Source: Acidimicrobiia bacterium (GTDB lineage Bacteria > Actinomycetota > Acidimicrobiia > IMCC26256 > JANYLB01). Taken from it: DNA of 28,057 nucleotides. Positions 9,896 to 18,841 of this stretch are shown piece after piece. Location: the NCBI GenBank assembly GCA_038222385.1, contig JBBRHS010000001.1, forward strand, positions 1-28,057, written 5' to 3'. A program made the translations under genes and the position numbers. The notes under the pieces are model-generated. The model made no database searches and was not told the origin of the DNA. It worked only from the letters and a program-made list of their open reading frames with translations. Each line of letters opens with the position of its first letter. The first letter of the stretch is position 1.

Positions 9896-10942
9896 TCAGC
9901 CGTCGGTGAGGTGGCGGTCGAGGAAGTCGGCCGCCTGCTTCAGCGTCGCTCGGGAGACGCCGGCCCAGGGCATGAGTATCTCGTAGACGTGGAACATGTT
10001 CGGGGCCAGGAACGACTCGACTTCGACGCCGTCGCCGCGCAGGCGGGCGACGAGCCGACCGATCTCGTCGCGGAACATCTCGTTCGTCCCGCGCGCCACG
10101 AACGACGGCGGGAACCCGCTCAGGTCGGCGTACACCGTCGACACCATCGGGTCGTGCGGGTCACGCTCGCCGAGGTATCCGCGCACGGGGATCTCGTCGG
10201 GCAGCACGTCGTGGTGGGCGTTGGCCGTGATCGACTCCTCGCCCATCACGAGGTCGACTTCGGGTGAGAACAGCAACGCGCACGCCGGCTCGGGGAGGTG
10301 CGCGGCGCGCGCGTCCTCGAACAGCGACGTTGCGAGACCACCACCGCCTGAGTCGCCCGCGATCACGATCTGGCTCGCGGTGCGGTTGTCGTCGAGGAGT
10401 CCTTCGAACACCTGGATCGCGTCGTCGAGGCCGGCGGGGAACGGGAACTCGGGCGCCAACCGGTAGTCGGCGATGAACAGGTCGCACCCTGTGATGCGCA
10501 CCAACTCGGCCGTGAAGATGGCGTACATCCACGGCGTGGTCGCGAGGTACCCGCCGCCGTGCAGGTAGAGGATCGTGGCGCGCGGGCGACCCGGAGGACG
10601 GACCCACACTCCCGGGATGTCGCGGATGAAGTCGTCCTCGATCGTCACACCATCGCGGGTCGCGATCGGCGGTAGCACCACCCGGCAGAGGTCGTCGAGC
10701 ACCTTCTCGAGTGAGCGCAGCCGGGGCGTCGGGAGGTTCATCGAGTAGGTCAGCAGGGTCTTGAGGATCTCCCGCATGCTCTCCTCGATCGTGTTGTCGA
10801 CGATCGACTGGGGCCCGGACCAGGGCTGATGCAGCGGGAGGGTCGCGATCGTGGTGCTCAGTCGGGCCGCGAGCTCGCCCACGGTGAGAGCCGAGTCGAC
10901 GAGCCCGGCGGTCTGCACCTCGGGGCGATCGGCCATGACCAT
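9896..10942 (-). CDS. Hormone-sensitive-lipase family (family IV) alpha/beta-hydrolase esterase/lipase
   Basis: HGGGY oxyanion motif, DYRLAPEFPFPAGLDD, nucleophile GDSGGG, acid in GTNEMFRDE, His in MFHVY. TAGGAT lies 6 nt before the ATG at 10942 (leaderless geometry). Confidence 0.92.
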   Translation of the reverse strand: MVMADRPEVQTAGLVDSALTVGELAARLSTTIATLPLHQPWSGPQSIVDNTIEESMREILKTLLTYSMNLPTPRLRSLEKVLDDLCRVVLPPIATRDGVTIEDDFIRDIPGVWVRPPGRPRATILYLHGGGYLATTPWMYAIFTAELVRITGCDLFIADYRLAPEFPFPAGLDDAIQVFEGLLDDNRTASQIVIAGDSGGGGLATSLFEDARAAHLPEPACALLFSPEVDLVMGEESITANAHHDVLPDEIPVRGYLGERDPHDPMVSTVYADLSGFPPSFVARGTNEMFRDEIGRLVARLRGDGVEVESFLAPNMFHVYEILMPWAGVSRATLKQAADFLDRHLTDG

Positions 10943-10997
10943 CGCCGGATCCTAGGGGTGCCGTGGTCTGGTCCCGATCCCGGGACCGCCCGGTGCG

Positions 10998-11024
10998 ACC
11001 GTGGGAGCGATCGCTCCTAAGATC
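10998..11024 (+). promoter_or_regulatory. Operator/promoter element, copy 1 (palindrome GGAGCGATCGCTCC at 11004-11017 plus -10 TAAGAT at 11018-11023)
   Basis: Perfect 14-bp palindrome abutting a TANNNT hexamer. The 27 bp are 24/27 identical to 22173-22199 read on the minus strand. Confidence 0.75.
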
Positions 11025-11030
11025 ATGGAC

Positions 11031-11813
11031 GTGACCACGCAGCGGCGTTTCAGGGTCGGCGAGCTGGCCGACCGCTGCGACCTCTCGGTCGACACCATCC
11101 GCTTCTACCAGAAGCGCGGTCTGCTCCCGCCTCCCGATCGCGTGGGCCGCGTCGGCTGGTACGGGCCGGGCCACGAGGAGCGCCTCGCCCGCATCCGCGA
11201 CCTCCAAGCCCAGGGCTTCACCCTCGCGGTGATCCGGCGACTCCTCGACGGTGAGCTCGACGCGGCCGACCTGCCGCTCGTCGCCGCGGTCGCCACCGAC
11301 GGGGAGGCCGACCGCGCCGAGCAGTTCCTCTCGCTCGCCGAGGTGGCCGAGCGCGCCGGAATTCCTCTCGCGCTCGTGGAGGCGGGCGAGCGGGAGGGGC
11401 TCCTCGTGCCGCGTCGCCACGCGGGCGAGGCCCGTTACACCGAGGGCGACGTCGTGATCGTGGGCTCCGCGCTGCGGCTCCTCGAGACCGGCCTCCCGAT
11501 GCCGGAGCTGTTCGCCATCGCGCGTCGTCACCACGAGACGACCCGTGAGATCGCCGAGATGGCCGTCGCGATGTTCGACGAGCACGTGCGGCGTCCGCTG
11601 CTCGCCGCCGAGCTCCCCGCGGATGTGCGCGCCGAGCAGCTCGTCGACGCGTTCCGGGTGCTGCTTCCGTCGGTGACGACGCTCGTCGCGCACCACTTCC
11701 GCCGCGTCCTGCTCGAGGTCGCGCAGGAACACATCGAAGCGGTCGGGGCACCCGAGGAACGCGCCGCGGTCGACGCCGAAGGTGGCCGTGCGCTCGAAGG
11801 ACCCTTCTCGTGA
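11031..11813 (+). CDS. MerR-family transcriptional regulator with tandem HTH repeats
   Basis: HTH1 FRVGELADRCDLSVDTIRFYQKRGLL; second, diverged HTH LSLAEVAERAGIPLALVEAGEREGLL. GTG at 11031 is 7 nt after TAAGAT (leaderless); alternative starts at 11025 and 11001. Confidence 0.9.
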   Translation: MTTQRRFRVGELADRCDLSVDTIRFYQKRGLLPPPDRVGRVGWYGPGHEERLARIRDLQAQGFTLAVIRRLLDGELDAADLPLVAAVATDGEADRAEQFLSLAEVAERAGIPLALVEAGEREGLLVPRRHAGEARYTEGDVVIVGSALRLLETGLPMPELFAIARRHHETTREIAEMAVAMFDEHVRRPLLAAELPADVRAEQLVDAFRVLLPSVTTLVAHHFRRVLLEVAQEHIEAVGAPEERAAVDAEGGRALEGPFS

Positions 11814-11826
11814 TCGGAGCGCTGCG

Positions 11827-12537
11827 GTGAGCGACGCGCCGGTACTCCCGGTCGGCGACGAGAAGCGCGTCATGGTCGAGACGATGTTCGACGGTGTGGC
11901 GCCCCGGTACGACCGGCTGAACCGGATCATCTCCCTCGGTCTCGACCAGGGCTGGCGCCACCGTACGGTGCAGACGCTCGGCCTGCCGGCCGGGTCCTGT
12001 GTGGTCGACCTCGCGTGTGGGACGGGCGATCTCTGCGACGACGTTCACGCCGCGGGCTACCGACCGTTCGGCTTCGACGTGTCGGCCGGCATGCTCTCCG
12101 CCGCGCACACCGCCGCGCCGCTCGTGCGGTCCGACGTGCTCGTGCTCCCGGTGCCCGACGCGTCGGTCGACGGGGTGACCTGCGGCTTCGCGCTCCGGAA
12201 CTTCGTCGACCTGTCGACGTTCTTCGCCGAGTGCGCACGCGTGCTGCGCCCGGGAGGTCGGATCGCGGCCCTCGACGCCGCTGAGCCGGAGAACCCGGTG
12301 ATGCGCATGGGCAACTCGGTGTGGTTCCGCCGGATCGTGCCGTGGATCGGGGCCCGCTTCTCCGACGACCCCGCCGCATACCAGTACCTCCCCGCATCGA
12401 CGGCCTACCTCCCACCCGGTCCCGCGCTGATGGGTCTCCTGCGCGACGCAGGCTTCGGTGCGGTCGACCGCCGCACGATGATGGGCGGTTCGGTCCAACT
12501 CCTCACGGGAACGCGCACCCGGGCGGCGACCCCGTGA
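11827..12537 (+). CDS. menG: Demethylmenaquinone methyltransferase (UbiE/MenG)
   Basis: MFDGVAPRYDRLNRIISLGLD, SAM motif VVDLACGTGDL, FALRNFVD, AYQYLPAST. GGAG lies 7 nt before the GTG at 11827. Confidence 0.9.
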   Translation: MSDAPVLPVGDEKRVMVETMFDGVAPRYDRLNRIISLGLDQGWRHRTVQTLGLPAGSCVVDLACGTGDLCDDVHAAGYRPFGFDVSAGMLSAAHTAAPLVRSDVLVLPVPDASVDGVTCGFALRNFVDLSTFFAECARVLRPGGRIAALDAAEPENPVMRMGNSVWFRRIVPWIGARFSDDPAAYQYLPASTAYLPPGPALMGLLRDAGFGAVDRRTMMGGSVQLLTGTRTRAATP

Positions 12538-13715
12538 CGAATGCCGCGCTCCGCCCCGAACTCGTCGCCCGCACGCGGTACCTCTCCGACGACCTCGACC
12601 CGCTCGATGCACTCGCACCCGGAGGATTCGCCTGGCTGCACGACGGTGCTGGATTCGTGGCGACCGGGGTTGCGGCGCGGGTTCCTGTCGACGACGTCGA
12701 CCGTGCGCTCGCGGAGTTCGTGGTCGACGACGCCGTGCGGAGCCCGGGGACCGGGGTCATCGCGGTCGGTGGGCTCCCCTTCGATCCCCGGGGTCCCGGC
12801 GAGATGGTGGTGCCCGCCACGGTCGTCGGCCGTACGACCGACGGCAGGACATGGATCACCGATGTCGACGCCGTCGCGCCGAGCGCGGTCTCGGTCTCGC
12901 CGCAACCGACGCGGTACACCGTCGATCGGGGGATGGATCGTGACGAGTGGGATGCCGCGGTGGCGCGGGTGCTCGCCGAGATCGACCGCGATGCCGTGCG
13001 CAAGGTGGTGCTCGCCCGCTCCGTGCACGTGGCCGCCGACGCGCCGTTCGACGTGCCTCGAATCGTCCGGCGCCTGCGGGCCGAACAGCCCGGGTGTTTC
13101 GTGTTCTCGACCGATGGTCTCGTCGGTGCGAGTCCCGAGCTTCTGCTCGCGCGCAACGGTCTCGACGTGTGGTCGCGTCCGCTCGCCGGCACCGCGCCCC
13201 GCCTCGACGACGCCGCACTCGCCCGCCTCACCGCCTCGGCGAAGGACGCGAACGAACACCGGTTCGTTGTCGACGCGCTGGTCGACGAGTTCCAGCGCCG
13301 GTGCGGTGCGAGTGTGCGCGTCGCGGGTCCCGAGATCCTGCGGTTCAGCACCCTGGCCCACCTCGCGACCACCATCTCGGGCCGTCTCCCTTCAGCCGTG
13401 GGCGACTCTGCGTTGGCGTTCGCTCGCGCCCTGCATCCGACTCCCGCAGTGGGCGGTACCCCGAACGACGCGGCGATGGCACTGATCGACGAGCTCGAAG
13501 GTGGGTCGCGCGGTCGCTACGCGGGTCCGGTCGGCTGGGTCGACGCCGACGGCAACGGCGAGTTCGCGCTCGCGCTGCGCAGTGCTGAGATCGACGGTAC
13601 CGATGCCGTGCTGAGCGCCGGCGCCGGCATCGTCGCCGGTTCCGACTCCGACGCCGAGTGGGCCGAGACCGAAGCCAAGCTCGCCCCCATGCTCTCCGCC
13701 CTCATCCGCCCGTAG
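12534..13715 (+). CDS. menF: Isochorismate synthase
   Basis: KVVLAR, GASPELL, PLAGT, KDANEH, LHPTPAVGG, RGRYAGPVGW, AGAGIVAGSD...EWAETEAKL. GTGA overlap with menG. Confidence 0.93.
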   Translation: MTNAALRPELVARTRYLSDDLDPLDALAPGGFAWLHDGAGFVATGVAARVPVDDVDRALAEFVVDDAVRSPGTGVIAVGGLPFDPRGPGEMVVPATVVGRTTDGRTWITDVDAVAPSAVSVSPQPTRYTVDRGMDRDEWDAAVARVLAEIDRDAVRKVVLARSVHVAADAPFDVPRIVRRLRAEQPGCFVFSTDGLVGASPELLLARNGLDVWSRPLAGTAPRLDDAALARLTASAKDANEHRFVVDALVDEFQRRCGASVRVAGPEILRFSTLAHLATTISGRLPSAVGDSALAFARALHPTPAVGGTPNDAAMALIDELEGGSRGRYAGPVGWVDADGNGEFALALRSAEIDGTDAVLSAGAGIVAGSDSDAEWAETEAKLAPMLSALIRP

Positions 13716-13727
13716 CCCGGGCCCCCA

Positions 13728-13778
13728 GTTCCGGTCAGGTTCTCGCCGTGCGGTGCGACAGATTCCGGACGAGTTCGA
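13728..13778. repeat. Direct repeat copy A: displaced duplicate of the menD 3' end
   Basis: 45/51 identical to 17092-17142, with the first 21 nt identical. The minus strand reads LELVRNLSHRTART*. Confidence 0.9.
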
Positions 13779-13788
13779 GGCGGTGGGG

Positions 13789-16700
13789 TCAGGGGATGGC
13801 CGCGGTGGCCTGGGCTTGGGCGGGCGTCATGCCGATCCGCTCGGCGAGCTCGGCAGTGGTGGTGAGGAGGACGGTGGCGTGGTCCCGATCGCCGGGCACG
13901 TCGCGGCGGAGGAGCACGATGCCGAGGTCGAGCCCGCTCTCGACGACGAGCTGGTGGAGCTCCAGACGTTCGTGGAACGCGTGGCCGGCCTCCATGAGCT
14001 CGACGGCCCGGTCGAGGTTGCCCCGCACCGCGGCGAAGCGGCCGCGAGCCGCGTCCGCGGCCCCGACGATAGCGGCGTCGCTGCCGAGCAGCTCCCCGGG
14101 GAAACCCTCGGCGTACTCGGCGTACCCCTCGAGGCCGTCGAGCGAATCGAGGTGGAACGCGAGTCGTGGCATGTAGCCGAGGTCGGTGTAGCGCGAGACC
14201 GGTGGCACGAACGGCTCGATCTCACGCAGCCAGTCCGCGAGCAGAGCTCGGGCTGCCGGCGCGTCCCCCATGTCGAGTGCCATCAGGGCCGCGGTGGGGA
14301 CGACGAGTCCGAGCGCCGTCGCGTCGCACCGCGACTGCCAGATCGCCGCGGCGACGAAGTCGCCGGTGAGGCGGGCGGCGGCAAAACATTGGAGTGCTCG
14401 AATGCCGTCGTTGGAGTCGCCGAGCGCCGTCCCGAGCTCATGCGCGATCTCCGCCAACCGGACCGCTTCGTCGAACCGCCCGCTCGCGACCGCGTGTCCG
14501 GCCCGGTAGTCGGCGATCGCCCATCCTTCGAGCGCGCCGCGCACCTCCGACGTTCGAAGGAAGGCCGCGGTCGCGCCCTCGAGATCTCCTTGGCTGAGCC
14601 GCGCGTTCGCGAGCTGGTAGTGGGCTCCGACCTCCACGCTGCGATCGTTGCCTGCGCGCGCGGCTTCGATGGCGGCTTCAGCTGCCCGCTGTACGTCGAC
14701 CGCCGGGAGCACCCCGCGTACGGCCCAAGCCCGTACCGCCAGTGCGGAGCAGAGGGCAGGCTCGTCACCCGCTTCGCGCGCGGCCGCGACTGCGTCGTCG
14801 GCTCCCCGGAGGGCACCGCCCGGAGAGAGGATCGACCCGAGAGCGAGCGCGGAGAGCACCCGGGCCCGCACGTCGGGCCGGTCAGCTCCCAGTGCGCTGA
14901 GTCCCTCCTGCATGATCTCGGCGCCGACCGGGTCACTCGGGCTCGCCCATACTCCCAACTCGCCGCCATAGGCGACGCCGGCCTCTGCGAGCCGGGTCGC
15001 GTCGCCGACATCGCGAGCCATGTCGGCGGCCGCGAGTGCGTACTCGTGGCCGCGCTCGGGCTCACCGGCGCTGTGGGAGCACGTGGCGATCTCGGAGGTG
15101 AGCGCCGAGCGCAGTCCCGGGTCCTCGCGCTCGATGGAGTCGAGCGCGTCGAGCGTGCGTTCGTACAGCGCGATGGCATCCTCCCAGGCGAACGAATTCC
15201 GTGCCCCGTGCGCCGCCTCGCAGGCGCACTCCACCGCCCGAGCTGCGACGCCCGTGACCGCGGCTTCGAGGTAGTGGTGGGCGAGCACGTCGATGGGTGT
15301 TCCCGGTCTCGTGTCGAGCAGCTCGGCGATCTTGCGGTGCAGGCGCAGTCGCTTGTTGGTCGTCAGCTCCTCGAGCAGCGTCTGGCGGACGAGCGCGTGG
15401 GCGAAACTCAGGCGGCCCGGGCTCCCCTCGACCTCGTCGACGAGCTGCGCGGCAACGGCTTCGTCGAGGCGGTCGACCGCGGTGTCTTCGTCGATCTGCA
15501 GCACCGTCGCCACGAGGTCGACCTCGAACTCACGCCCGAAGACGGCGGCGGTGCGCATGAGGTCGTTCGTCTGTTCGGAGAGCCGCGAGAGGCGCTGGCC
15601 GATGACGTCACGCACGCCCTCGGGGAGGCCGGCCTCGCCGGGCGCGAGGGTGCCGACCCACACGCCGTCGTGCTGCACGAGTGCGCCGGTCTCGACGAGG
15701 TTGCGGAGCACCTCGGTGACGAAGAACGGATTGCCGTCGGTCTCGGCGGCCAGCCGGTCGGCCAGCGCGAGGCCCTCGGTCTCGAGGGGCTGTCCGCTCG
15801 CGGCCTCGAGGAACGCGCGCATCCCGGTTTCGTCGAGACCGCGCAGCGCGATGCGTTCCGCGCCGGCCGAGCGGTGGAGGTCGGCGAGAGCGCTGGAGAG
15901 CGCGTGGCTGCGGTCGATGTCGGTGTCGCGGTATGTGACGAGCACGAGCACGTGGGTGTCGGGGTCGAAGTGGCTTACGACGTGGCGGAGCAGGTGCACG
16001 CTGCCCGAGTCGGCCCAGTGCGCATCGTCGAGGAGCACCACGAGCGGCTGCGGATCGGCCGCCCGCTGGAGGAGGTCGACGACGGCCTCGAAGAGCAGGA
16101 GCCGTTCGGTGTCGGGATCGGTCGAGGCTGGTGGCGGGGCATCGGGAACGCGGCGAGCGAGATCGGGCACGAGTCGGCAGATCTCACCGCCGTGGTGGGC
16201 CACGTGCTCGATGATGGTGTCGTCGCTCACGTTGGCAACGACGAAGCGCAGCAGCTCGGTCCACGGTGCGTACGGCGCAGCGACGTGCTCGTCGCAGCGG
16301 CCGAGTGCCACGAGCGCACCTTGGTCGTGGGCCTGCCGGGAGACCTCCGACGCGAGTCGCGTCTTGCCGATGCCGGGTTCGCCGGCGAGGAAGACCGTGG
16401 TCGCTCGGTCCACCTGGGCGCGCTTCCAGGCATCGGTCAGTTGGAGGCGTTCGTCGTCGCGGCCAGCGAAGGGGACCTCCCCCGATTGCCGGCGGAGCGG
16501 CGCGGGTAGTGGGGCCGTGGCCTCGACGGCTGCGGTCCAGGGCACGTCGAACACGATGACGGGATCGGGGAGGCCCTTCAGATCGATCTCGCCCACGAGC
16601 ACGAAGCTGAGCTCGGTGCGACCGCGCGCGAGGCCGCGTACGAGGTCGTCGCAGAGGATCTGGTTGCCGTCGGCCGAGTCGCACAGACGCGCCGCGGTGA

Positions 16701-17055
16701 CGACCGGCGTGCCGTGGCAATCGCCGTCTTCCCAGGAGACGTCGCCTGCGCTCAAGCCGACGCGCACTTCGATCCGTCGGTCCTCGCGGGCTTGGCGGTT
16801 CGAGCGGTCGATCTCGCGCTGGATCTCGTGCGCCGCGTTCACCGCTTCTGCGGTGGCTCCGAACGCGGCGAGGATGCCGTCGCCGAGTCCCTTCACCACG
16901 GTTCCGCTGTGCCGGGTGACCACCGCACCGAGGATCTCGTCGTGATGGCGTCGCAGTCGATCGGCTTCCGCGTCGCCGAGCCGGGACCGCATCTCGGTGC
17001 TCCCGACGACGTCGGTGTACAGAATCGTCGCGGTGCCCGCCCCGGCCTGGCTCAC
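13789..17055 (-). CDS. Class III adenylate/guanylate cyclase - STAND (AAA_16-like) ATPase - helical/TPR-like repeat protein
   Basis: Cyclase ILYTDVVGSTE...VVKGLGDG...VRVGLSAGD...GTPVVTAARL; Walker A GEPGIGKT; Walker B LVVLLDDAHWAD; FAHALVRQTL; Ala-rich helical C-terminus; no LuxR HTH. GTG at 17055 is 7 nt after TAGCCT. 1088 aa. Confidence 0.9.
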   Translation of the reverse strand: MSQAGAGTATILYTDVVGSTEMRSRLGDAEADRLRRHHDEILGAVVTRHSGTVVKGLGDGILAAFGATAEAVNAAHEIQREIDRSNRQAREDRRIEVRVGLSAGDVSWEDGDCHGTPVVTAARLCDSADGNQILCDDLVRGLARGRTELSFVLVGEIDLKGLPDPVIVFDVPWTAAVEATAPLPAPLRRQSGEVPFAGRDDERLQLTDAWKRAQVDRATTVFLAGEPGIGKTRLASEVSRQAHDQGALVALGRCDEHVAAPYAPWTELLRFVVANVSDDTIIEHVAHHGGEICRLVPDLARRVPDAPPPASTDPDTERLLLFEAVVDLLQRAADPQPLVVLLDDAHWADSGSVHLLRHVVSHFDPDTHVLVLVTYRDTDIDRSHALSSALADLHRSAGAERIALRGLDETGMRAFLEAASGQPLETEGLALADRLAAETDGNPFFVTEVLRNLVETGALVQHDGVWVGTLAPGEAGLPEGVRDVIGQRLSRLSEQTNDLMRTAAVFGREFEVDLVATVLQIDEDTAVDRLDEAVAAQLVDEVEGSPGRLSFAHALVRQTLLEELTTNKRLRLHRKIAELLDTRPGTPIDVLAHHYLEAAVTGVAARAVECACEAAHGARNSFAWEDAIALYERTLDALDSIEREDPGLRSALTSEIATCSHSAGEPERGHEYALAAADMARDVGDATRLAEAGVAYGGELGVWASPSDPVGAEIMQEGLSALGADRPDVRARVLSALALGSILSPGGALRGADDAVAAAREAGDEPALCSALAVRAWAVRGVLPAVDVQRAAEAAIEAARAGNDRSVEVGAHYQLANARLSQGDLEGATAAFLRTSEVRGALEGWAIADYRAGHAVASGRFDEAVRLAEIAHELGTALGDSNDGIRALQCFAAARLTGDFVAAAIWQSRCDATALGLVVPTAALMALDMGDAPAARALLADWLREIEPFVPPVSRYTDLGYMPRLAFHLDSLDGLEGYAEYAEGFPGELLGSDAAIVGAADAARGRFAAVRGNLDRAVELMEAGHAFHERLELHQLVVESGLDLGIVLLRRDVPGDRDHATVLLTTTAELAERIGMTPAQAQATAAIP

Positions 17056-17091
17056 AAACCGGAGGCTACGCCCATACCGAACAGCCGATCC

Positions 17092-17142
17092 GTTCCGGTC
17101 AGGTTCTCGCCGCGCCGGGCGGCAGATTCCTGACCAGTTCGA
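17092..17142. repeat. Direct repeat copy B (current menD 3' end, stop codon and 7 bp downstream)
   Basis: Minus strand encodes FELVRNLPPGAART*; 45/51 identical to 13728-13778. Confidence 0.9.
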
Positions 17143-18841
17143 AGATCTCGCGATGGCGGGCGACGTTGTCGGCCCGGTCGGTGCGCACGAGGACCATGCC
17201 GACGCCACCGGCGTTGATCGCGTCGAGCACCGTGGGCGCGAGCGCGGCGGCGCGGGTGACCTCGACTGTCGGCACGCGGTGCACCGCGGCGAGCGCGGCG
17301 AGGTCGACGGGTTGGGGCGTGCCGAAGAGGGTCTCGAAATGATCGGGGAGCTGCGCCTGGGGCAGGAAGGAGAAGATCCCGCCCCCGCGGTTGTCGATCA
17401 CGACGAACACGGCGTCGAGCCCCCGTTCGGCAACGCCGAGCAGGCCGTTGGTGTCGTGCAGGAAGCACAGATCACCGACGAGGGCAACGGTCGGGCCGTC
17501 GTGACCGGCGGCGATGCCGAGCACCGTCGACACGAAGCCGTCGATGCCGTTCACGCCCCGGTTCGCGTGCACGTCGACCCCCGTCCGCGGCGCCGCGAAC
17601 GACTCCAGGTCGCGCACCGGCATGCTCGAAGCCACCACGAGCGCGGCACCGTCGGGGAGCGCGGCCATCACGTCGCGCGCGATGCGACCCTCGAACGGCT
17701 CGGCCCAGCGGTCGAGGACCGCGTCGACCTCGGCCCTCGTCCGATCCTCGTGCGCGGTCCAGCGCGCCGAGGATCCATCGGTGCGCCCGGTCTGTCGTTC
17801 GGTCAGTCGTTCGGTGAGGGCGACGAGGAGCGGCTCGGTGTCGGCGTCGACGACCTCGTGCGCGCGGCGGGCGGGATCGACCCAGCGGCGGTCGGGGTCG
17901 ACGAGCAGCGTCGGGAGGTCGGCGAGCCACTGACTCGTGGCCTTTCCGGTCAACGGAGCACCGAGGCGCAGGACCAGATCGGGCCGCAGCTCCGCGGCAC
18001 GGACCGGGTCGCGCAGCAGGATGTCGTAGATCGATACCACGTGACCACCGGTCCGCAGGTTCGACACCGCATCTGCGAGCACCGGCCAGCCCGTGGTCGC
18101 GGCGAACGCATCGACGACCGCGGGCGAGACGTGGGCATCCCAGCCGGCGGTGATCACCCCGTTCGGCGTCGCGCCGATGCGGGCCGCGAGCGCGGTGAGC
18201 GCAGCATCGTCGAGGACCCGCCCGGACACGGTTTCGCGGAGCCAGGGGCCTCCGTCGGGCCGGCCGGGCGCGTCGACGAGCGCCGCCCCGGTGGGCAGGA
18301 GGGGCTCGCGGAACGGGAGGTTCAGGTGCACCGGGCCTGCCGGCGGTCCGGCTGTCTCGATCACCGAACGCGCCGCGAGCTCGCGCCACGTCTCGCCGGA
18401 GCCGGGTCGGTCGATCGGGACTTCGGCGTCGACGAACCAGCGGACCGCGTCTCCGTAGAGGTGCACCTGGTCGATGGTCTGGCCGGCGCCGACGCCCCTG
18501 AGCTCGGGGGGCCGATCGGCGGTGGCGACGATGAGCGGAATACCACCGTGGCTCGCCTCGAGCACCGCGGGGTGGAAGTTGGCGGCGGCGGTCCCCGAGG
18601 TGCAGAGCACCACTGCGGGTCGGCCGGTCGCGCGCCCGAGGCCGAGGGCGAAGAACGCGGCCGACCGTTCGTCGAGGTGGACGTGGAGCCGGATCCTCGG
18701 GTCGTCGGCGAATGCGAGCGCGAGTGGTGCCGACCGGGACCCGGGGGAGAGGACCGCGTGGTCCACGCCGCCCCGGACCCACTCGTCGACGAGGGTCCGG
18801 GCGAAGGCGGTCGTTGCGTCGCGCGGAGCGGCTGCACTCAC
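17099..18841 (-). CDS. menD: SEPHCHC synthase (ThDP-dependent)
   Basis: SPGSRSAPL, HLDERSAAFFALG, TSGTAAANFHPAVLEA, TADRP, ANRGVNGIDG, GDLCFLHD, DNRGGGIF. Best start is GTG at 18841; 580 aa. Confidence 0.96.
   Translation of the reverse strand: MSAAAPRDATTAFARTLVDEWVRGGVDHAVLSPGSRSAPLALAFADDPRIRLHVHLDERSAAFFALGLGRATGRPAVVLCTSGTAAANFHPAVLEASHGGIPLIVATADRPPELRGVGAGQTIDQVHLYGDAVRWFVDAEVPIDRPGSGETWRELAARSVIETAGPPAGPVHLNLPFREPLLPTGAALVDAPGRPDGGPWLRETVSGRVLDDAALTALAARIGATPNGVITAGWDAHVSPAVVDAFAATTGWPVLADAVSNLRTGGHVVSIYDILLRDPVRAAELRPDLVLRLGAPLTGKATSQWLADLPTLLVDPDRRWVDPARRAHEVVDADTEPLLVALTERLTERQTGRTDGSSARWTAHEDRTRAEVDAVLDRWAEPFEGRIARDVMAALPDGAALVVASSMPVRDLESFAAPRTGVDVHANRGVNGIDGFVSTVLGIAAGHDGPTVALVGDLCFLHDTNGLLGVAERGLDAVFVVIDNRGGGIFSFLPQAQLPDHFETLFGTPQPVDLAALAAVHRVPTVEVTRAAALAPTVLDAINAGGVGMVLVRTDRADNVARHREIFELVRNLPPGAART

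Follow-up and report, generated by a model that had tools for sequence, protein, structure and literature searches.

A cyclase-STAND gene inserted between menD and menF of an Acidimicrobiia bacterium is bracketed by two members of a dispersed palindromic repeat

How does a single gene without any mobility function come to lie between two core genes, with a copy of the same short repeat at each of its ends, and did the repeat have a part in bringing it there? The question is raised by a stretch of 28,057 nt from an Acidimicrobiia bacterium (the window), which is contig C1 (GenBank JBBRHS010000001.1) of a 3.16-Mb metagenome-assembled genome of 516 contigs and 77% completeness (G000 below). The gene encodes a cyclase-STAND protein and has been inserted at the convergent junction of the menaquinone (vitamin K2) genes menD and menF. 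On its two sides are copies A and B of a palindromic repeat, here named E, that is dispersed over intergenic regions and specific to the lineage.

The preliminary description of this DNA had noted that positions 13728-13778 and 17092-17142 are 45/51 identical at a spacing of 3364 nt, and that they surround one cyclase-STAND gene. The pair is confirmed, the chance expectation of such a match in the window being 9e-10. Alignment to a covariance model, R1, extends the similarity to 58 nt (47/58), and the repeat unit is a palindrome. Copy A lies at 13725..13782 of the plus strand (64.1 bits, E-value 2.4e-13) and has a degraded right arm; copy B, at 17089..17146 of the same strand (79 bits, E-value 4.4e-17), has its hairpin intact. 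A single open reading frame (ORF), the cargo, fills the space between the two copies (13789..17055, minus strand, 1088 aa). It probably begins with a GTG at 17055, separated from the menD stop by 43 nt, and terminates with a stop codon at 13789-13791, which leaves a leader of about 45 nt and a trailer of about 10 nt. Copy A begins 9 nt past the stop of menF (isochorismate synthase; 12321..13715, plus strand; Pfam Chorismate_bind 1e-69; NCBIfam isochor_syn 254.5 bits, above the cut-off) and lies 6 nt beyond the cyclase stop. On the right stands menD (SEPHCHC synthase; about 18901-17099, minus strand; NCBIfam TIGR00173 434.6 bits, above the cut-off; Pfam TPP_enzyme N, M, and C domains). The cargo was thought to be enclosed together with its promoter, but no promoter-like site was found in the 43-nt gap after the menD stop; a scan of the short spacers around the gene gave neither a sigma-70-like promoter nor a canonical terminator.

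Read on the minus strand, copy A gives ELVRNLSHRTART and a stop, and copy B gives ARHREIFELVRNLPPGAART and a stop, the latter being the genuine end of MenD. Copy B thus encodes the final 15 codons and the stop of MenD (translation IFELVRNLPPGAART, then stop). It should be noted that the cyclase stop is in frame with the reading of copy A (13735-13791, minus strand); read-through would append 17 residues to the cyclase, and the arrangement is probably a coincidence.

That the gene is an insertion, as first proposed, is borne out by the relatives. Among the genomes compared, the gene is found at menF-menD only in G000 and in the sister species G003, where the orthologous proteins are 86.5% identical. 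Seven relatives have the junction without the gene: the congeners G004, G001, and G002, the second genus G005, and also G010, G016, and G035, so that the empty-site outgroups cover the same family plus three other families. At these sites the two men genes are tail to tail with 13 to about 110 nt between them (about 680 nt in G035). In a MenD+MenF tree G000 and G003 are sisters (99/99 support) and G004 comes next. We infer that a single gain on the common stem of G000 and G003 is the most parsimonious history.

The empty sites also tell what the event did to menD. One E is present between the menF and menD stops of G004 and G001, outside menD, and none in G002 or the outgroups. At the empty sites MenD has its own short and variable tail after a conserved ...ARHRE and ends outside E, whereas in G000 and G003 the tail continues into copy B. 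The former tail was therefore lost in the event together with the spacer, their place being taken by E, from which 15 codons and the stop now come. The earlier idea of a 3′-end replacement is upheld in this form. The accompanying idea, that the repeat is a duplicated menD tail or an att-like site, has to be given up, as the same element occurs at many unrelated loci and stands outside menD in two empty-site congeners.

Within the species only the occupied form has been met. It is the form present in all four metagenomes examined, where a search for junctions or empty sites gave none at the A/B edges and only short-sided joints of 21-31 nt, a weak negative since contigs drop rare variants. Two metagenome contigs from JGI belong to the same species (98.8 and 97.3% identical overall) and both are occupied; all other matches are at most 64% identical. 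Sequence nearly identical to the window was seen in sediment, freshwater, microbial-mat, biofilm, and glacier metagenomes of at least 11 studies, and the organism is widespread in cold and fresh waters. A side observation concerns G003, where menF and menD (L035:5305-6713 and 10113-11896) were each recovered in three tblastn pieces. These look like frameshift errors of a four-contig, probably long-read assembly rather than pseudogenes, and the MenD tail of G003 appears one base out of register relative to G000.

E is about 58 nt long, with conserved arms CCCGTTCYGGTCA(GG) and (CC)TGACCRGAACGRGG and a variable loop between them. When the whole assembly was searched with copy A, contig C399 gave a third match, and short-word BLAST together with an arm search added copies on C56, C10, C336, C8, C273, C174, C334, and C171. 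Since the same element recurs at unrelated loci and is matched there by the covariance model, what had been described as a 51-bp tail duplication is two members of E. Nearly all copies are intergenic, near stop codons and mostly 3′ of them, and about 1 intergenic region in 60-100 carries one. R1 was built from eight copies and gave 11 matches in G000, 38 in G001, 40 in G003, 69 in G004, and 4 in G002, counts that cover both strands, the loci being roughly half as many. The model also matches the second genus of the same taxonomic family, and 35 genomes drawn from 22 other families within the order gave zero matches. An Rfam scan of 13500-17400 at E-value ≤1 returned nothing at copies A or B, and in the literature we found no account of E, or of genes bracketed by it, in Actinobacteria.

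The fold of copy B has an energy of -32 kcal/mol (z -4.6), and it and the copies on C399, C56, and C10 and one of G004 have z from -3.2 to -4.6 relative to shuffles. Covariation in the eight copies is modest: three pairs are changed on both sides, and 29/500 shuffles score as high. The case for the hairpin is carried mainly by folding energy. Many copies have 2-4 A ahead of the strong hairpin and 2-4 T behind it, which, to judge from sequence, gives E the look of a bidirectional terminator; a canonical terminator scan of the region found no match despite the strong hairpins. The copies in G004 (L169-L188) are of at least two arm types, GGTCAGG/CCTGACC and GGTCAT/ATGACC, mixed within single copies, and this may suggest a modular or recombining structure.

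Copy A has a fold no better than that of shuffles (z +1.07). The reason is a pair of substitutions that disrupt its right arm, which reads CCGGACG in place of CCTGACC. Strain variants at this copy have C at 13749 and G at 13758, both as in copy B. The preliminary description had counted synonymous differences between A and B as a sign that both had evolved as coding menD ends. The argument involves two substitutions only, and both are in the right arm of the hairpin, where they break the stem of copy A. Moreover, the MenD tail differs between strains that are 98.8% identical (ELVRNLPHSAKKT and a stop in other strains of the species), and the argument from synonymous changes therefore carries no weight. 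The strain-variable tail is probably neutral for function.

Sequence passes between copies of E. The two same-species JGI contigs (97-99% identical strains) have a copy B allele that differs from B of G000 at 8/49 positions, B of G000 matching its allelic counterpart in L189 at 41/49. Yet copy A of these contigs, L189 included, is matched by B of G000 at 45/49. In G003 the two E copies around a DUF559 gene share 55/63, and the G004 orthologs of these copies differ. Together, the allele pattern and the G003 pair indicate that E copies are overwritten by gene conversion, and for this reason the similarity of A to B cannot date the insertion. We infer that it reflects family membership and conversion rather than a recent duplication. 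Beside this we note that a 47-nt stretch with 3 differences from copy B (window 17091-17137) is present on another long contig in each of runs X3 and X4 (9155 and 7718 nt); almost identical E copies therefore exist elsewhere in those strains.

The cargo matches Guanylate_cyc (3.6e-07) and AAA_16 (1.3e-29) of Pfam and has a long C-terminal region. It has a cyclase domain followed by a STAND-type NTPase, the layout of cyclase-STAND signalling proteins. Mycobacterial multidomain cyclases have the same arrangement of a class III cyclase and an AAA_16 NTPase; the match of the cargo to TOMM_kin_cyc is partial and below the cut-off. Some codons ending in A or T had been noted in the cargo, by eye. 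Measured over the gene, the G+C fraction of third codon positions is 0.86 (35th percentile of the genome ORFs) and the codon adaptation index is at the 43rd percentile; the composition is native, with no sign of a distant donor. The cargo is a member of a large cyclase-STAND paralog family. The protein of its closest paralog, on contig C28 of G000, is 72-73% identical, and at the inner edges of B and A the non-coding similarity between the two genes fades, about 45 nt ahead of the start codon and about 10 nt past the stop.

The C28 paralog seems to have moved in its own right. Its DNA (G000 C28:6174-9419, L056) is 96% identical to that of a paralog in G004 (C47:1-979, L057), as compared with about 80% for core genes of the two species. 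Upstream of the gene the two share only about 55 nt before similarity is lost, and their flanks are unrelated, which looks like recent transfer or relocation of a single gene, without an adjacent E.

Is the bracket peculiar to menD-menF? Two other loci have it. The first is in G004, where recO is followed by E1, a different cyclase-STAND paralog (about 50% identical), E2, and the 3′ end of a GNAT gene; this locus is split across contigs C101 and C440 and was joined by synteny. Elsewhere at this site, G003 has recO, one E, and the GNAT gene, and G001 has recO, one E, and glyS; in G002 and G005 the site lacks E. Gene content, too, varies in the recO-glyS spacer, a second variable spot (G003 L166:5492-6223; G004 L141:1-100; compared with L165 of G001 and L167 of G002): the GNAT acetyltransferase gene is present in G003 and G004 and not in G001, G002, or G005. 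At the other locus, in G003, G004, and G005, a gene with AbiEi_4 and DUF559 (Vsr-like endonuclease fold) domains lies between two E copies, a molybdopterin oxidoreductase gene on one side and a metallo-beta-lactamase gene on the other (G003 L138:3207-4208; G004 L139:2390-3421; G005 L163:4107-5016); this bracket is thus found in two genera. The gene is missing from the same site of G000 (L161, C190:2870-2951), where there is a single, different palindrome, CGTTGGTGCGAT...ATCGCACCAACG. A role of the AbiEi/DUF559 protein as an E-specific nuclease was considered and rejected, there being 2-4 DUF559 genes in all five genomes whatever the copy number of E. In the three tight brackets both copies of E are within about 80 nt of the ends of the cargo gene; a 5.6-kb E pair in G003, by comparison, spans ordinary metabolic genes. 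The suggestion of a variable-cargo hotspot therefore applies to E sites in general (the recO and molybdopterin oxidoreductase-metallo-beta-lactamase sites), whereas at menD-menF itself only one kind of cargo has been seen.

In sum, one E is present at two of the three empty congener sites and E-cargo-E at the occupied ones, and there is no recombinase in or near the cargo. The lack of an integrase, which had been noted from the start, extends to the whole of contig C1, where a search with PF00589 gave no match. Elsewhere in G000, too, no copy of E has a tyrosine recombinase on its contig. The G003 assembly (four contigs, 86% complete) has only two tyrosine recombinases, both Xer-like and both conserved in all five genomes. 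No Y1 transposase (PF01797) was found in G000, G001, G003, G004, or G005 (59-89% complete), the control genomes being positive, and a search for an integron integrase in genomes of the family was negative. An intact element bounded by E-type ends was also sought; the candidate, lone arms on contig C29 of G000, was rejected, as these enclose HTH, PIN, and oxidoreductase genes and no transposase.

We favor, with fair but not strong confidence, an E-mediated insertion by host functions, as one event in the common ancestor of the G000 and G003 species. The insertion would have used E itself, with the host functions acting in trans, and two routes, about equally likely, can be envisaged. In one, two E copies flanking the gene at a donor locus would recombine to release a circle consisting of the gene plus one E, and a single crossover between the circle and a resident E would produce E-cargo-E. 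In the other, nicks of the same polarity, staggered at the base of an extruded cruciform, would leave 5′ overhangs as long as E; fill-in would then provide two ends, each with a full E, and end joining could capture a DNA fragment between them. By either route E-cargo-E would arise with no need for the cargo to encode an integrase. A and B may subsequently have been kept alike by gene conversion among E copies.

Several observations weigh against an active role of E. The boundaries of the cargo are blurred by the 27% protein divergence from its nearest paralog, and no E adjoins the gene shared by C28 and C47, which is a third mobile paralog of the cyclase-STAND family. A and B are the closest E pair of G000, but B and the C10 copy are nearly equal to them (45/58), and the bracket pairs of G004 rank only 51st and 105th of 300 E pairs, not clearly above random. 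No circle and no empty site within the species has been seen, the occupied form being fixed in the four metagenomes. From the copy numbers, close pairs of E are expected by chance about one to three times per genome. Finally, the arms of E, with 15-17 nt of identity, are marginal substrates for RecA.

Another possibility is that the bracket is coincidental, E having had no part in the insertion. Illegitimate or homology-facilitated recombination would have placed the gene next to a resident E, and the second E would have come separately, either through its own spread to gene ends or as the old E-type terminator of the cargo. The abundance of E and its preference for gene ends are in keeping with this, as are the flanking pairs of G004, no more alike than many random pairs, the estimate that E pairs within a few kb occur by chance about once or more per genome, and the strong dissimilarity of copy A of G000 to its G003 counterpart A′. 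We nevertheless consider a coincidence unlikely. There are three tight brackets, and two are lineage-specific insertions for which a sister genome holds exactly one E. With E in only about 1/60-100 intergenic regions, a second copy exactly at the new junction would be improbable in two independent insertions. A reversed polarity of events, with E-cargo-E ancestral to the genus and the one-E sites of G004 and G001 arising by deletion through the flanking direct repeats, seems to us improbable. Direct repeats 3.3 kb apart can recombine, the molybdopterin oxidoreductase-metallo-beta-lactamase site looks like such a loss in G000 given that the cargo is present in two genera, and the C1-type and C28-type paralogs, 72-73% identical, are about as diverged as the genus. 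On the tree, however, at least two or three independent losses would be needed instead of one gain, and the outgroups (same family and three other families) have neither cargo nor E at the junction. Moreover, menD of the empty sites ends outside E with a tail of its own, which a simple crossover between A and B would not recreate.

Insertion by an integrase that was later lost, the menD 3′ end being duplicated as in islands that target tRNA genes, would also account for direct repeats around the cargo and for a distal copy that rebuilds the 3′ end of a gene. We give it very little weight: the supposed att is a palindrome dispersed over dozens of unrelated loci, and in G000 it never shares a contig with a tyrosine recombinase; it lies outside menD in the empty-site relatives; and the single-ORF, 3.3-kb cargo has native composition and no integrase remnant. 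Least credible of all is that the palindrome is an operator for a transcription factor of the men genes, present twice for two promoters. A long palindrome does occur twice in the men cluster, but copies also follow recO, adjoin the molybdopterin oxidoreductase gene, and occur at many unrelated gene ends, mostly 3′ of stops, and copy A has lost its symmetry.

E and its brackets can be compared with several known systems. The repetitive extragenic palindromic (REP) sequences of Proteobacteria, together with the bacterial interspersed mosaic elements (BIMEs) and REPINs, are known sites of rearrangement and of insertion sequences. They share with E a small size, an imperfect palindromic structure, a copy number in the tens, an intergenic position that is mostly 3′ of genes, restriction to a lineage, and hairpins that resemble terminators. 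ISPpu9 inserted in REP sequences is a described case (PMC12288879). Unlike in the system of REP and its RAYT transposase, no RAYT/Y1 transposase was found in five genomes of the family that carries E, E has no GTAG-type 5′ tetranucleotide, and it brackets whole inserted genes. MITEs, the miniature inverted-repeat transposable elements, have terminal inverted repeats, a variable centre, and multiple copies, as does E. In MITE-flanked gene units (composite, MITE-bracketed cassettes; reviewed for prokaryotes in PMC10969869), two small non-autonomous inverted-repeat copies stand in direct order around a gene without mobility function, as in our brackets. The differences are that no parent transposase with matching ends was found for E, and that in the sister genomes the empty site has a single copy rather than being free of it. 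A direct repeat that consistently flanks E copies, as a target-site duplication would, was not recognised; filled and empty sites were too diverged to define ends. By analogy, then, E resembles REP/BIME or MITE-like repeats, and the bracket resembles MITE-flanked units and, more loosely, integron cassettes.

The likeness to integron cassettes lies in single, promoterless-looking ORFs, each beside an imperfect palindrome whose outer arms are conserved while its centre varies; the circle of a gene plus one site suggested above would be a further one. But E arms read GTTCYGG...CCRGAAC on both strands, a GTT...AAC polarity that is the reverse of the RYYYAAC...GTTRRRY of attC, and there is no IntI (G003 having the two Xer-like recombinases only), no array, and no platform of attI and Pc. 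The dif-type sites that Xer recombinases act on, as in IMEX and pdif modules, are 28 nt long, with two 11-nt arms around a spacer of 6-8 nt. The arms of E, in contrast, are about 25-40 nt apart. An integrative island flanked by att sites differs from the present case, which has no recombinase gene in or next to the element and a repeat that is not private to the target gene end. Neisseria offers minimal mobile elements and dRS3/NIME regions, where different accessory genes occupy the same intergenic spot, dispersed repeats mark it, and host recombination acts; exchange there is through flanking core-gene homology after transformation, whereas here the repeats themselves bracket the cargo. Lastly, the rebuilt MenD tail recalls the in-frame Rickettsia palindromic elements, in that a dispersed palindromic repeat provides protein-coding sequence, here the last 15 residues of MenD. 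Unlike those elements, E gives a C-terminal tail and stop only and no internal segment, and the tail varies between near-identical strains.

The E-mediated insertion that we favor invites a broader and, in our view, doubtful reading, in which E palindromes form an integrase-free cassette system. A gene between two E copies would leave as a circle with one E and re-enter at any other E, whether in its own genome or in that of a relative. Host recombination would serve for this, or else an unrecognised enzyme specific to E. If this is true, menF-menD, recO-glyS, and the molybdopterin oxidoreductase-metallo-beta-lactamase site would belong to a family-wide insertion network for accessory genes, including the much-duplicated cyclase-STAND sensors.

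What does the locus mean for these bacteria? E is a previously undescribed palindromic repeat family of an uncultured Acidimicrobiia family. It marks sites at which single accessory genes are gained and lost, and a core biosynthetic enzyme can have its end rewritten by it. Whether or not E acts, similarity between such repeats is unusable for dating an insertion. If E is inactive, the locus cautions that, where a genome is rich in repeats, short direct repeats around a gene say little for site-specific integration. If E is active, it would provide a simple means of gene shuffling that needs no dedicated recombinase, in a lineage where recognisable mobile elements are few.

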